From positions 6,977 to 70,976 of the forward strand of contig JAUUYL010000003.1 of the NCBI GenBank assembly GCA_030590485.1: a stretch of DNA of 64,000 nt, given 5' to 3'. Numbering within the stretch: position 1 is the first letter of the stretch; every line of letters begins with the position of its first letter. This stretch comes from Lentisphaerota bacterium (GTDB taxonomy: Bacteria > Verrucomicrobiota > Kiritimatiellia > UBA8416 > JAUUYL01). The position numbers were made by a program, and so were the translations under genes. The notes under the pieces are model-generated. The model did no database searches and was not told where the DNA came from. It saw only the letters and a program-made list of their open reading frames with translations. Positions 49,231 through 54,273 of the stretch are shown piece by piece.

Positions 49231-49297
49231 GGCGAAGCACTTGTATCGTAGAGGTGCCGTCCGATTAAGATTAAGAGCTCAACAAAGGAGTACTGAT

Positions 49298-49558
49298 ATG
49301 AGCGATGAAGGTATGACCATGAACCTGAGAATTAAGCTAAGCGCGATGATGTTTCTGCAATTCATGATGTTTGCAGTATGGTGGGTTCCGCTAGGTGCGT
49401 ATATGGCTGGAACATTGAAATTATCTCATCCTGCCACGGCAAACATCTTCAACACTATATCGGCTGTATTACTGGTAGCTTATCTGGTTCTTTTCCGCGA
49501 GAAGCTTGGCGGGGAGAAAGCCGACACAAAAGCGCCTGAAGATGCACCAGCAGGATAA
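49298..49558 (+). pseudogene. nucleoside:H+ symporter (NupG/XapB family) N-terminal fragment
   Basis: It reads MSDEGMTMNLRIKLSAMMFLQFMMFAVWWVPLGAYMAGTLKLS..., which matches the NupG N-terminus (MNLKLQLKILSFLQFCLWGSWLTTLGSYMFVTLKF). It ends after 86 codons, against about 418 for NupG. It sits next to deoC. Confidence 0.5.
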
Positions 49559-49616: not shown

Positions 49617-50699
49617 CTATATTTCGTCTGTTGTGTCAGCTTGCTGACGAATGGCTTCTTCATGAATGCCCTGGAAGAGCTGAAAGATGAAATTCTCTGA
49701 TAGTTGCAGGTCTTGCCCTGCCTCAATTCTGCTTTTTATTATTTCCTTCCAGCGATGAGGCTGAAGGGCTGACACATTATTGGCAAGTTTCAGGGCCCAC
49801 ATGTCCTGCACAATCTCCATACGTTTGCCGAGTAGCTCGAGGACGTTATTGTCAATGTGGTCGACTTCCGTACGAAGCTCTTTCAGTCTCGTCTTAAACT
49901 CCTGACTGTCGCTGAGTTCCCGCTTGAGTGTCAGGCGGTCGACAAGAGAATGGTATTGTTTGGGAGTGAGCTGTTGTTCGGCATCGCTCAAGGCCTTGGT
50001 CGGATCAATATGCACCTCGACCATCAGACCGTCATAGAGCAGGTCCAGTGCTTCCTGTGCGACAGAGAAAATTAATTCTGATTTTCCGCAGATATGGCTT
50101 GGGTCGCAAAGTATGGGAATCTCGGGCAGACGGCGTTTAAGTTCAATAGGTATCTTCCAGTTGGGTGCGAATCGGTAGATGCTCTGCCGTGAGGAGCTGA
50201 ATCCCCGGTGGATCGCCCCTATCTTCTTTAAGCCGACAGCATGCATGCGTTCAATCGCGCCCAGCCACAGTTCAATGTCGGGGCTGATCGGGTTCTTGAT
50301 TAATATCGGCATATCTGTACCCTTCAACGCATCGGCGATTGCCTGCACCGCGAAAGGGTTGGGTGTGGTTCTGGCTCCGATCCAGACGATATCGATGTTG
50401 TGTTTCAGGCAGGCTTCGACATGCTCAGGGGTTGCCACTTCAATGCCTATAGGTATGTTATATTCATCTCGCGCCCTGGTCAGCCAGTCCAAACCCTCGA
50501 TACCGACACCTTCAAAAGAACCTGGTCTTGTCCTGGGCTTCCACAACCCTACTCGCATAAAACTGATGTTAGAATCTGCGAGGCCCTTGGCTGTAGCCAT
50601 CACCTGTTCTTCAGATTCTGCACTACATGGTCCCGCCGAAAGAAGCAGGTTCTTTACAGGCAGTCCCCATTCGTTTAGAGGTGTAAGTGATAATTCCAT
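49617..50699 (-). CDS. 3-deoxy-7-phosphoheptulonate synthase (AroA(G)/KDO8PS-like type) fused to C-terminal chorismate mutase
   Basis: It has an N-terminal DAHPS/KDOPS-family TIM barrel (GPCSAESEEQV, LWKPRTRP) and a C-terminal AroQ-like helical domain of about 90 aa. Confidence 0.75.
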   Translation of the reverse strand: MELSLTPLNEWGLPVKNLLLSAGPCSAESEEQVMATAKGLADSNISFMRVGLWKPRTRPGSFEGVGIEGLDWLTRARDEYNIPIGIEVATPEHVEACLKHNIDIVWIGARTTPNPFAVQAIADALKGTDMPILIKNPISPDIELWLGAIERMHAVGLKKIGAIHRGFSSSRQSIYRFAPNWKIPIELKRRLPEIPILCDPSHICGKSELIFSVAQEALDLLYDGLMVEVHIDPTKALSDAEQQLTPKQYHSLVDRLTLKRELSDSQEFKTRLKELRTEVDHIDNNVLELLGKRMEIVQDMWALKLANNVSALQPHRWKEIIKSRIEAGQDLQLSENFIFQLFQGIHEEAIRQQADTTDEI

Positions 50700-50800
50700 A
50701 ATCTATTCTTTGTACTCTTATAGAGCGGAGGAAGCAAGAATAGTTGCCGGGGCGGCTTGAAAAAGGTTAGCCGTTTATTGGTGCATCTTTGTTAACTTCG

Positions 50801-51088
50801 TCAATCTTGAGAAAAACAATACCGCCCTTCTTCTCTGTTGAAATGAGTAATTCGAATGGTGCAACCACCACAATGTATGGTATGTCCGCAGCCCTGAGGC
50901 GAGGCTGCATATGCGCTCTCGAACACATCACCTGGGGCAAATCCTTCTATCTCATCGAGATTCTTGCCCAAAAGAGCCAACGCTTTTGAGTTGGCAGTCT
51001 CTTTATCGGCGTCATCTATCAGGCACGCCTTAAGATGGTAGCCTGAATGAATTGTTTGATTGAATTTCCCGCAGTTTATCTTGAACAA
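50801..51088 (-). CDS. hypothetical small Cys/His-containing protein
   Basis: The 95-aa ORF starts at a TTG codon that the track labels M. It has a C-terminal cluster CGHTIHCGGC, overlaps the upstream paralog by 59 nt, and is the last gene of a four-gene co-directional cluster. Confidence 0.3.
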   Translation of the reverse strand: MFKINCGKFNQTIHSGYHLKACLIDDADKETANSKALALLGKNLDEIEGFAPGDVFESAYAASPQGCGHTIHCGGCTIRITHFNREEGRYCFSQD

Positions 51089-51533
51089 CTTTCACGTGCT
51101 CGTGGGTATCGGTTGAGAGTCTGTCGGCAATAATTCTGTATTCCGAGGCATCTGAGTTCACTATATCATAAAAATGAGCATCCAGGACGGAGGATTCTAT
51201 ACCAAGAGCTGTTTTAATTGCAGTCTCTTGCGAAATAGGATTTTCTTTCGCGTCACTTATTGAATCATTCATCTTTTGAAGAAAGGCGTCTGTGTTCGTT
51301 GACTCAAATCTGCCAATGTTTTGAAAGATATTTCCCTTTGCCAGTTGTTTATGCATTGATCGGAGAAGATCCGCATGGATTTTTTCCTTCTTAGATAAAT
51401 CCTGCCAAAACTCTTCCATTTCAGGAATGGACATTGCGTAGACGGAATAAAGCGTTGATATGGCTTCTTCGCAAAGAACTAGATTGTCAATTATTGCACT
51501 TTGAATCTCTATAATCTTTTCTTTTGCATTCAT
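51030..51533 (-). CDS. ferritin-like four-helix-bundle protein, paralog B
   Basis: The 167-aa ORF has a predicted all-helical fold and a recurring E...ExxH pattern (EEAISTLY...EKIHADLL; THEHV). It is a paralog of the adjacent 185-aa gene. Confidence 0.4.
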   Translation of the reverse strand: MNAKEKIIEIQSAIIDNLVLCEEAISTLYSVYAMSIPEMEEFWQDLSKKEKIHADLLRSMHKQLAKGNIFQNIGRFESTNTDAFLQKMNDSISDAKENPISQETAIKTALGIESSVLDAHFYDIVNSDASEYRIIADRLSTDTHEHVKVVQDKLREIQSNNSFRLPS

Positions 51534-51534
51534 A

Positions 51535-52092
51535 TTATAGCTCTACGACTTGATCGTTGTTGTCTTTTGCTTTATTAAGACCATCTTCCACAAGCTTGAT
51601 ATGTTGTTTTGTGTGACGTTCGATTGCCTCCAGCTCTTTCTTTATGTGAGAGATATTGGTTTCTATAACTTGAAAATAACCCGCTTCAATAAGTGAATGT
51701 TCAATATCTACTGCAAGAGAAAATGCACAAATAGGCGTGATTCCTTGGGCGGACACTTTGGCAATCTCCTTTTTTATGTGTTCGATGTTTGTCTGAATGG
51801 CGTCAACATTGAACTTGCTCGGGTTAAAATATACGTCTTCTGATTCACACAATTCCGCAAGTTGTTTGAGCACTTCGCCATGAGCCTTTTCTTGAATGAC
51901 AAGGTTGCTCCAGAAGGCTTCCAATTCTGGCAACGCTACGCTGAATGCGGCATAAAGAGAAGCTATAGTCTCTTCCTGGGTTGACAGAGCAGTGATAATA
52001 TCAAAACGAGATGGATTCGTCATTCGCATACCTCCTTTTACGCTTTGTTTAATAAACATTTCAAATGGAGTATATGAGATATCGTTAATCAT
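51535..52092 (-). CDS. ferritin-like four-helix-bundle protein, paralog A
   Basis: The 185-aa ORF aligns with paralog B (QEETIASLY...QEKAHGEVL; ELEAIERH). It is separated from paralog B by 1 nt. Confidence 0.4.
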   Translation of the reverse strand: MINDISYTPFEMFIKQSVKGGMRMTNPSRFDIITALSTQEETIASLYAAFSVALPELEAFWSNLVIQEKAHGEVLKQLAELCESEDVYFNPSKFNVDAIQTNIEHIKKEIAKVSAQGITPICAFSLAVDIEHSLIEAGYFQVIETNISHIKKELEAIERHTKQHIKLVEDGLNKAKDNNDQVVEL

Positions 52093-52257
52093 CTCAAAAC
52101 CCCAATAATATTTTTGTTATTCCAGCAGATGAGATGTGGCAACATACCCTCTGCAGTTCCCCCTATTCTATACTTAGCAGTTGAGTGGTCAAGCGGAATG
52201 CCTGGATAATCATTAAGGTTTAAAGCTGACATTGGAGCCTTCCTGTCATAGATTCTT

Positions 52258-54273
52258 GTGATGGAGGAGAAAACCAGAATAATACCTATAGAGGCAGTAC
52301 CCAACGAACCGTTCAAGGTGGACTTTCATGGTGAACCGCTTGCCGAGTTGATGGATCGTAATTTCCTGGATTATGCTTCATACGTAATATGCGAGCGAGC
52401 TATCCCGAGCCTTTCAGACGGCCTCAAGCCTGTTCAGCGCCGCATTCTGCATTCGATGAACGAGATGGATGACGGGCGTTTCATTAAGGTCGCTAATGTG
52501 ATCGGCAACACCATGCAGTATCATCCGCATGGTGACGCCTCTATCGGGGCCGCATTGGTCAATCTGGCAAACCGAAGTTGTCTTATCGATAAACAGGGTA
52601 ATTTCGGAAACACCTTTACCGGCGACCCAGCCGCCGCCCCGCGTTATATAGAATGCCGTCTTACGAATATGGCACGCGATCAGCTTTTCAATAAGAACAT
52701 TACCGAGTATGTCCCATCTTATGATGGCAGGAACATGGAGCCGGTAGAATTCCCCTGCAAACTACCGCTTCTGTTGATGATGGGTACAGAAGGAATTGCC
52801 GTGGGTATGTCCACCCGTATCCTACCTCACAATCTGGGCGAGCTGCTGGATGCCCAGATAGCCTTGGTCAGCGGAAAGCAGGTGAAACTTCTTCCCGATT
52901 TTATCCAAGGCGGCCTAATGGATGTTGCAGAATATGATGAGGGGCGAGGCACAGTAAGGCTTAGAGCCAGGATTGAGGACCGGGAGGACGGCTCGCTTTA
53001 TATAACTGAGATACCTTTCAGCACAAATACCGATTCACTTGTAGCGTCGATTGACGATGCTGTCCGCGCCCGAAAGTTACCCATATCATCAATCAACAAC
53101 TATACAGCCGAAACAGTTAATATTGAATTGGTGTTGAAATCTGAGGCCGACACGGAAACGCTTATCAGTAAGCTTTATGCATTTACGCAATGCGATGTGG
53201 TGCTCAACAGCAGTATCATTGTACTAAAAGATAAGAAGCCGGTTGTACTGAAAGCGCATGAGCTACTTCACGAGAATACAAAACAACTTTTCAAGGTTCT
53301 TAAGAAGGAACTGCAGTTTCAGAAGCATGCCGCACTTGAAGCAATCCAGGCCCGGACTCTGCAACGAATCTTCATTGAAGAGAAAGTATATCAGGTTCTG
53401 GAATATTGCCTCGCGAAGGATGATATATCACGACTGACTAAAACACGCATGGAGCGCTACAAAGCAGAGTTTCTCAGGGATATCACAGACGCGGATATAC
53501 AGACACTGTTATCCATAAGGATAAGACAGATATCCGGCTATGATATGGATAAGAATCTACGCGTGATCAAAAAGATCAACAAAGACTTGGAACAAATCAA
53601 TTGGCGCCTGGACAACATGAAGAGACATGTTCTCAAGACATTACGAGACATGAAGAAGCAATATTGCCCTGAGACGGTTCGGCGCACAGAGATCACATCT
53701 TTCGAGCAGATCAAAAGAAAAGAACTGACGGCTAACGAAATCAAGATGTCGTTCAACAGCGAAACCGGATATGTTGGCTCAAAGATTGATGGTGATCGCT
53801 CCATCGAATGTTCTCCCTATGATAAGATAGTTTTAATCTGGAACAACGGTCGCTGCAAAGTGATCCGGCCATGCGAAAAGTTATTTACGGATGTTAACCT
53901 GGTCTATTTTGCGAAGGTGGACGCAAAGCGAATCTTGACCATTGTCTATAGCCAGGATGGGTTCTCATATCTCAAACGATTCAAATTCAGCGGCGCCGTC
54001 CAGAACAAGATTTATCGTTGCGCGCCCAGGAATGCAAAAATAATGTTCTCCAGCGATCAAGAACATGAAAAACTATATGTGAAATACCAGCCTTATGACG
54101 GCATGCAGATTGCCCAGCAGTATTTTGAACCAAGCGGTTTACCTGTGCAGAAAGTTCAAAGCGCCGGCAAACAGATGACATCCAAGGTAATCGACAAAAT
54201 AGCAACAGAGATGCCAAAATGGTGGGACGAAGAAGCAAAAGCCCCACGCGGCGTCTTTATGGATATGATATAA
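52258..54273 (+). CDS. type IIA topoisomerase subunit A (ParC/GyrA-like) with short C-terminal domain
   Basis: It has the motifs GLKPVQRRILHSM, YHPHGD, the active-site Tyr context AAPRYIECRL, and winged-helix/tower regions. It has only 671 aa, with about two beta-pinwheel blades at the C-terminus. Confidence 0.8.
   Translation: MMEEKTRIIPIEAVPNEPFKVDFHGEPLAELMDRNFLDYASYVICERAIPSLSDGLKPVQRRILHSMNEMDDGRFIKVANVIGNTMQYHPHGDASIGAALVNLANRSCLIDKQGNFGNTFTGDPAAAPRYIECRLTNMARDQLFNKNITEYVPSYDGRNMEPVEFPCKLPLLLMMGTEGIAVGMSTRILPHNLGELLDAQIALVSGKQVKLLPDFIQGGLMDVAEYDEGRGTVRLRARIEDREDGSLYITEIPFSTNTDSLVASIDDAVRARKLPISSINNYTAETVNIELVLKSEADTETLISKLYAFTQCDVVLNSSIIVLKDKKPVVLKAHELLHENTKQLFKVLKKELQFQKHAALEAIQARTLQRIFIEEKVYQVLEYCLAKDDISRLTKTRMERYKAEFLRDITDADIQTLLSIRIRQISGYDMDKNLRVIKKINKDLEQINWRLDNMKRHVLKTLRDMKKQYCPETVRRTEITSFEQIKRKELTANEIKMSFNSETGYVGSKIDGDRSIECSPYDKIVLIWNNGRCKVIRPCEKLFTDVNLVYFAKVDAKRILTIVYSQDGFSYLKRFKFSGAVQNKIYRCAPRNAKIMFSSDQEHEKLYVKYQPYDGMQIAQQYFEPSGLPVQKVQSAGKQMTSKVIDKIATEMPKWWDEEAKAPRGVFMDMI

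Follow-up and report, generated by a model that had tools for sequence, protein, structure and literature searches.

The ferritin-like superfamily is one of the main sources of di-metal chemistry that activates O2 and peroxide, and its small "erythrin" members are considered close to the ancestral form. Here we describe a pair of adjacent genes, hereafter A and B, that encode predicted members of this superfamily in a 64,000-nucleotide (nt) stretch of the genome of a Lentisphaerota bacterium (assembly GCA_030590485.1, contig JAUUYL010000003.1, positions 6,977 to 70,976; hereafter, the window). The best profile match to the family formed by these proteins and their relatives was symerythrin of Cyanophora paradoxa (3qhb, 3sid), which, as predicted for A and B, is a single-domain four-helix-bundle di-metal carboxylate protein, of ~180 amino acids (aa). 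The ExxH in helix 2 of symerythrin and the Glu in its helix 3 align with the family, but symerythrin keeps a second ExxH, its SETKH aligning with the T-x-x-H of the family and its Glu corresponding to Thr here. It is also the product of one gene, whereas the window proteins, with ~15% identity to it, are a pair. TM1526 of Thermotoga maritima (1vjx), a "putative ferritin-like diiron-carboxylate protein" of 157 aa, is similar in size and is also functionally uncharacterised. It matched the profile over nearly its full length (E = 0.006–0.009), with its E-x6-Y, ExxH and helix-3 Glu aligned to those of the family, but it has a canonical E-K-E-H in helix 4 and ~14% identity. TM1526 is not known to us in a paired or fused form. 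What is new here is a sizeable family at the edge of the rubrerythrin group, with no dedicated model in Pfam-A or NCBIfam and no solved structure, that combines a non-canonical ligand set with a pair/fusion architecture. We lean towards the reading that A and B make up a self-contained two-gene operon, in the order A then B on the minus strand, that codes for a single di-metal-carboxylate protein of ferritin fold, built from two diverged subunits and placed at the margin of the rubrerythrin/erythrin group.

Other described proteins resemble A and B in part. Sulerythrin and ferriperoxin likewise consist of a ferritin-like domain without a rubredoxin domain, but two features of rubrerythrins, an additional Glu in helix 3 and a second ExxH, are absent from A and B, and sulerythrin matched the family profile at E = 0.17 only. 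Sulerythrin, ferriperoxin and rubrerythrin are homodimeric, whereas this family has an A/B pair. YciE and YciF (DUF892) are tandem ferritin-like paralogues of similar size, and a preprint (bioRxiv 10.1101/2023.01.20.524870) reports iron binding and ferroxidase activity for YciF. They nevertheless form a separate family of the same superfamily: DUF892 (PF05974) matched neither A nor B at E ≤ 1 and none of ten relatives at E ≤ 0.1, and it was not among the 25 families listed of the 26 that were matched by 132 relatives at E ≤ 0.01. An analogy with yciE/yciF had been drawn in a preliminary description of the window, made from its sequence alone; these searches show that it does not extend to family membership. 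The encapsulated ferritin EncFtn and EncB are two-helix half-ferritins whose metal site lies across a dimer interface, whereas A and B are modelled as full four-helix bundles; EncB gave a weak profile match to helices 1–2 (E = 0.015–0.03), no EncFtn-like Pfam match was obtained for A or B, and inspection by eye only found no obvious cargo-targeting tail on either protein. Manganese catalases share the five-residue ligand inventory of Glu, Glu-x-x-His, Glu and His, a likeness of site and not of family; they are ~270–300 aa long with a different bundle elaboration, and the Pfam Mn_catalase model was matched by one fused member, below threshold (E = 0.0034).

Gene A (51535..52023 with its stop codon, minus strand) encodes a 162-aa ferritin-like (erythrin-like) four-helix-bundle protein and gene B (51030..51533, minus strand) a 167-aa ferritin-like four-helix-bundle protein, both read from open reading frames (ORFs). 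The TAA stop codon of A (51537..51535) is separated by the T at 51534 from the ATG of B (51533..51531), confirming the 1-nt gap between two minus-strand paralogs that had been noted previously. The earlier length of 185 aa for A was an artefact of taking the longest ORF. We place its start at 52023 because a Shine-Dalgarno-like GGAGG (52031..52035, minus strand) lies 7 nt 5' of that ATG, while only 1 nt separates it from an alternative ATG at 52029, because all A orthologues begin at the equivalent of 52023, and because the database copy of A (P0013, source NCBI, 162 aa) likewise begins there. B is identical to the database protein P0001. The in-frame codon score of A was 0.22; A, B and the adjoining genes scored 0.19–0.22, within a range of 0.19–0.23 for genuine genes of this region.

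A and B are true paralogues: they share 25% identity over 148 aa (BLASTP, E = 6e-22), and profile–profile alignment of their ortholog groups with hhalign gave a probability of 99.5% (E = 4e-22, 154 columns). AlphaFold2 (AF2) models built from a 19-sequence alignment contained four long helices each, with a mean predicted local distance difference test (pLDDT) of 89.7 for B and 89.4 for A and a predicted template-modelling score (pTM) of 0.86. In Foldseek searches of the PDB, the top neighbours of both models were all ferritin-like, at template-modelling (TM) scores of 0.5–0.7. For B they comprised MJ0754, H-ferritins, a Sulfolobus Dps-like protein (DpsL), bacterioferritins and symerythrin, and for A symerythrin (top), ferritins, aldehyde-deformylating oxygenase and TM1526, the last with the highest TM-score for A (0.66/0.71; root-mean-square deviation 4.7 Å). 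The literature on MJ0754 and TM1526 yielded nothing relevant. Profiles alone gave matches in sequence searches against the PDB, where single-sequence searches with A or B returned nothing useful; a profile of 132 family members matched symerythrin over helices 2–4 (E = 3.2e-5) and also TM1526 (E = 6e-3), designed DF1 diiron bundles, EncB and sulerythrin. We are therefore highly confident of the fold of A and B, the up-down-down-up four-helix bundle, and of their membership in the ferritin-like superfamily. The preliminary description had predicted that both paralogs are all-helical with E...ExxH patterns, which the models and alignments bear out, and had suggested a ferritin-like or rubrerythrin-like di-metal four-helix bundle, which held for the fold and the ligand pattern once structure prediction, proposed there as a check, had been run.

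The family signature that emerges from the alignments is E-x6-Y in helix 1, W-x6-E-x2-H in helix 2, E in helix 3 and T-x2-H in helix 4. Most of these residues are near-invariant in 200 aligned domains (B numbering: E22 in 197, Y29 in 199, W43 in 199, E50 in 199, H53 in 196, E113 in 197 and H146 in 195). The putative ligands are E22 (with Y29), E50-x2-H53, E113 and T143-x2-H146 in B, with D142 adjacent, and E17, E45-x2-H48, E108 and T138-x2-H141 in A, with H137 adjacent. Both proteins thus carry the helix-1 Glu with Tyr at +7, the Glu-x-x-His of helix 2 and the Glu of helix 3, and these align with their counterparts in TM1526 and symerythrin. The second Glu-x-x-His of a canonical diiron site, in helix 4, is absent from both and replaced by Thr-x-x-His: position 143 is Thr in 155 of the 200 domains and Glu, as in canonical diiron proteins, in just 6. 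Directly before it, 116 of the 200 domains carry Asp, Glu or His, and the Asp (B) or His (A) at this place could serve as a register-shifted sixth ligand.

We estimated the extent of the family with an exhaustive profile search over 1.84 billion cluster representatives, which recovered 2,644 family representatives at E ≤ 1e-3, 1,709 at E ≤ 1e-10 and 149 at E ≤ 1e-30. A word-indexed homologue search had yielded merely 12 B-type and 7 A-type relatives, and the impression of an extremely rare family that it gave was overturned by the exhaustive search. When the B alignment was used to scan 185,579 species-representative genomes, no relative was recovered, and 20 cluster look-ups returned no name besides "hypothetical protein". 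Affinity to the rubrerythrin group was apparent in the Pfam Rubrerythrin model (PF02915), which 61 of the 132 relatives matched at E ≤ 0.01 (best, 2.3e-8); among the ten relatives scanned individually, one (P0023, 25.6 bits) passed its cut-off. A C-terminal rubredoxin-like Cys4 domain is absent from A and B, both of which end after helix 4 and contain no CxxC pairs. An origin in a defence system or phage was considered and rejected, as the PADLOC and PHROGs collections gave coiled-coil-type noise alone.

A and B recur as a unit. Besides the window, adjacent genes in the order A then B were found in three other unrelated genomic contexts, with a spacing of 23 nt in L001/L002 and 2 nt in L003 and an overlap of 4 nt in L010. 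Two-domain proteins account for about 30 of the best 150 family representatives, with A preceding B in 21, and two of the fused forms (P0020 and P0021) were confirmed as single stop-free frames. The two lineages are conserved separately, with identities of 52–69% between A proteins, 49–72% between B proteins and 20–28% between A and B. Because of the fusions, the tight coupling of the genes and the separate conservation of each lineage, we think that A and B probably form a heteromer.

On this basis we propose how the pair might work. Each protein would be a four-helix bundle presenting Glu from helix 1 (with Tyr seven residues on), Glu-x-x-His from helix 2, Glu from helix 3 and Thr-x-x-His from helix 4. 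Together these would supply five of the canonical ligands of a two-metal site; Thr stands in place of the sixth, for which the preceding Asp (B) or His (A) is a possible substitute. A and B would assemble as a heterodimer or hetero-oligomer, in keeping with the same order in which they are found fused elsewhere. The site would bind Fe, possibly Mn, and would reduce H2O2 or O2, or oxidise Fe(II), with electrons supplied by reductases encoded elsewhere in the genome, unlinked to the pair. We infer metal binding, heteromer formation and peroxide/oxygen chemistry from the comparisons above, and the reduction of peroxide or O2 with separate reductases specifically from analogy with single-domain rubrerythrin-like proteins: ferriperoxin, a rubrerythrin-like protein that has no rubredoxin domain, acts as a peroxidase with electrons from a ferredoxin:NADPH reductase encoded by another gene (PMC3317640). 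By this analogy, peroxide or O2 chemistry is a tentative assignment for A and B, one that may well prove wrong.

Several observations weigh against the proposal. The Foldseek E-values of the models (0.015–0.04) are modest, as is usual for helical bundles. B matched PF02915 at 16.6 bits (E = 0.011), under the gathering threshold of 22.8, A did not match it, and the NCBIfam scan gave no match for the window proteins. The sixth canonical ligand is missing (TxxH), and a site without it may be mononuclear, may bind another metal or may be inactive. In the window, no reductase, rubredoxin or peroxide regulator adjoins the pair, and its neighbours are different at every related locus, that is, not conserved; hints of redox or iron functions were present in only ~4 of ~12 independent contexts. 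Finally, two lineages (L004/L005 and L006–L009) have A with no B beside it, and the heteromer is therefore not obligatory everywhere.

The structural neighbours and the ligand pattern also allow other functions. The E-x6-Y and ExxH pair is the ferroxidase-centre pattern of ferritins and bacterioferritins, H-chain ferritin also lacks a second ExxH, and the top structural neighbours include ferritins, the Dps-like protein and bacterioferritin; A and B could then be an iron-storage or ferroxidase mini-ferritin, assembled as a YciF-like oligomer or as a cage of the Dps or ferritin type, which would oxidise Fe(II) and sequester iron instead of turning over peroxide. An EncFtn-like gene beside the pair in L010 points the same way. 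However, the family profile places symerythrin and TM1526 far above ferritins, the Pfam Ferritin model (PF00210) was touched by only 1 of the 132 members (E = 0.006), and two-domain fusions are atypical of cage ferritins, and we regard a mini-ferritin as unlikely. The five-ligand set of manganese catalases, with one bridging carboxylate among three Glu and two His, equals the E, ExxH, E and H of the family with Thr at the position of the bridging Glu, which suggests a Mn-catalase-like dismutase or, given that aldehyde-deformylating oxygenase was among the Foldseek matches of A, a small-molecule oxygenase. Single members also gave weak matches to the Pfam models Mn_catalase, MiaE_2 and Ald_deCOase, which would agree with such catalysis, but all are sub-threshold and sporadic. 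Minimal bundles of 160 aa have neither the substrate-channel helices of oxygenases nor the long helices of manganese catalases, and biosynthetic neighbours are not conserved, so that we consider di-metal catalysis of these kinds rather improbable.

A di-metal bundle might instead serve as a non-catalytic sensor of O2, iron or redox state that signals through partners. A hemerythrin-fused family member (P0134, 316 aa; L015–L017, 14 contigs), consisting of a B-type domain and a C-terminal hemerythrin domain (PF01814), is encoded 5' of PAS histidine kinases and response regulators, and in L003 the genes for a PAS kinase and a sigma-54 activator are transcribed divergently from the pair. Signalling genes are commonly neighbours by chance, though, and no output domain or regulator is linked to the genes in the window or at most loci; a regulatory role thus seems very unlikely. 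The preliminary description had envisaged a module of four translationally coupled genes, in which a small upstream protein and a downstream Cys/His-rich protein flank A and B, the latter protein perhaps donating electrons or metal. Such a donor would carry a 2Fe-2S or zinc site. Both open frames exist, and small redox partners of other kinds occur at other family loci, but only A and B are conserved together. Because flanking genes differ at every locus, and because a search of related loci for co-occurrence of the four genes recovered neither small ORF, including at the loci with an A-B pair, this larger arrangement is largely refuted and we consider it most improbable. In our preferred reading, the two-gene A-B operon, the unit is two genes and not four, and the Cys/His-rich "partner" is not to be carried forward.

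The gene status of the two small ORFs, which the preliminary description counted among its four genes, is likewise poorly supported by their own properties. The 95-aa ORF (50801..51088, minus strand) lies between B and a DAHP synthase/chorismate mutase gene and carries C67-x5-C73-x2-C76...C91 (CGHTIHCGGC). It overlaps B by 59 nt, without close coupling to it, starts with TTG without a ribosome-binding site and has a codon score of 0.09–0.13, nearly equalled by a second frame. No homologue was found in 5.8 billion proteins; its own sequence was absent from them too, although A and B of the same contig were present. No related locus has a counterpart 3' of B: a tblastn match at this place in L010 (E = 0.4) was out of frame with any ORF there and was dismissed as chance, and a zinc-ribbon gene 3' of a fused homologue in L021 proved to encode a membrane-anchored, unrelated protein. 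Its Cys motif weakly resembles the cluster loop of Fer2 (PF00111; 13.2 bits, E = 0.085 over 20 residues, against a cut-off of 21 bits), but the ORF stops 4 residues past the last Cys and is too short for the Fer2 fold, with no complete beta-grasp domain. This sub-threshold match and the lack of homologues leave the idea of a conserved electron or metal donor without support. Its length is no evidence for coding because, of 81 out-of-frame shadow ORFs in the window, 43 reach 95 aa or more. In favour of a gene, a C-x(2-5)-C-x2-C motif occurred in none of these 81. We judge it quite doubtful that the 95-aa ORF is a real gene; it is probably non-coding intergenic sequence.

The upstream ORF (52089..52316, minus strand; 75 aa, or 47 aa if it starts at the ATG at 52235) extends into the 5' end of the divergent topoisomerase gene, lies in the divergent promoter region and has a codon score of 0.05. 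Scans of Pfam, NCBIfam, PADLOC and PHROGs found no family match for it, and it has no counterpart in related loci. The 4-nt ATGA overlap that had suggested its coupling to A involves an ATG that does not start A, and the coupling therefore depended on the false long start of that gene. A GGAAGG 5 nt before the ATG of the 47-aa version favours a gene, but we consider the ORF, in either length, probably non-coding.

Scans for regulatory features gave candidate sites, on weak evidence. A consensus scan found a promoter-like TTGAGA-17-TATACT (10/12) at 52069..52097 on the minus strand, which would start an A-B transcript ~40 nt before the start of A and downstream of the upstream ORF, and an alternative, TTGACC-16-TAGAAT (10/12; 52165..52192, minus strand), inside that ORF. 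Both candidates for A-B thus lie inside or downstream of the upstream ORF. In the 2.4-kb region, 10 promoter-like sites were counted, versus 4.2 ± 1.9 in shuffles. Past the stop codon of B by 35 nt, and inside the 95-aa ORF, the scan identified a terminator-like hairpin, GCCAAC-N8-GTTGGC, followed by TCTTTTGGG (50976..50995, minus strand); the fold of this region is not exceptional (z = -0.84), and its position alone is suggestive. Positions 50600..52400 gave no match to an Rfam RNA element, even with the threshold relaxed to E ≤ 1, and neither intergenic region yielded an operator-like palindrome when searched for inverted repeats. Separately, TTAATGATTATC at 52199..52217 (minus strand), just 5' of the stronger promoter-like site, resembles half of the Fur-box consensus, agreeing at ~10 of 19 positions by eye.

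At some other loci, family members stand beside genes that could bear on their function. An FMN reductase gene lies immediately 3' of a family member in L011. In L014 (845..3720, plus strand; GCA_036681025.1), overlapping genes come after that of the fused A-B protein P0021, one for a 196-aa protein without a Pfam match and one for a 448-aa ferric-reductase-like flavoprotein with transmembrane, FAD-binding and NAD-binding domains. These genes look like an operon and are a candidate electron supply. The gene directly 3' of the A-B pair in L010 (1573..1917, plus strand), on a 2-kb metagenome contig, encodes a 114-aa half-ferritin (Pfam Rubrerythrin, E = 6e-8; EncFtn-like, E = 0.0018), and any encapsulin shell gene would lie beyond the end of the contig. 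With the hemerythrin fusion P0134, these are the four contexts, of ~12, that hint at redox or iron functions, and they count in favour of the proposed chemistry.

The ten window neighbours of the pair that we scanned are housekeeping genes, including those for DHFR, NUDIX, DeoC, DAHP synthase-chorismate mutase, a topoisomerase IV/gyrase A-like protein, a DEAD-box helicase and DinB. The pair is divergent from the topoisomerase IV/gyrase A-like gene (PF00521, E = 8e-104), the parC-like gene of the preliminary description, which had recognised this orientation correctly. That gene (52258..54273, plus strand) is short, encoding 671 aa, and its product had one relative in the 185,579 species-representative genomes, with 40% identity, in a Bacteroidota metagenome-assembled genome; the source lineage of the window seems to be poorly sampled. 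Beside the DeoC-like aldolase gene, a 105-aa ORF (49241..49558, plus strand) matches positions 1–52 of the 400-position Nucleoside H+ symporter model (PF03825) with its residues 27–77 (E = 3.9e-5, narrowly missing the cut-off). This ORF resembles what is left of the N-terminus of a nucleoside transporter after truncation and may be a pseudogene.

The base composition of the pair sets it apart from this setting, its G+C content (51030..52100) being 36–41% versus about 50% (48–54%) in the flanking housekeeping genes. A 67-aa phage-integrase fragment is encoded just 5' of a stand-alone A-type gene in two related loci (L004, 5594..5797; L005, 215..418). Together with the different neighbours at each related locus, the low G+C and the integrase fragment suggest that A-B is a mobile, self-contained module that was acquired horizontally.

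Two unusual features are combined in this family: the conserved loss of one canonical carboxylate ligand and a recurrent split into diverged subunits, which are also found fused. A further conjecture, in which we place limited credence, is that these proteins constitute an unrecognised, widespread erythrin-like family working as obligate A/B heteromers or fused pseudo-dimers. Thr would replace the helix-4 Glu of their non-canonical site, flanked by Asp in one subunit and His in the other, so that the two sites would be chemically inequivalent and could support chemistry unlike that of rubrerythrins, ferritins and symerythrin. If true, this could mean, for example, an arrangement that separates catalysis from electron transfer, or a cofactor of mixed Mn and Fe. 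A profile of the family would turn many hypothetical proteins of poorly sampled bacteria into testable candidates for roles in oxidative stress and iron handling.

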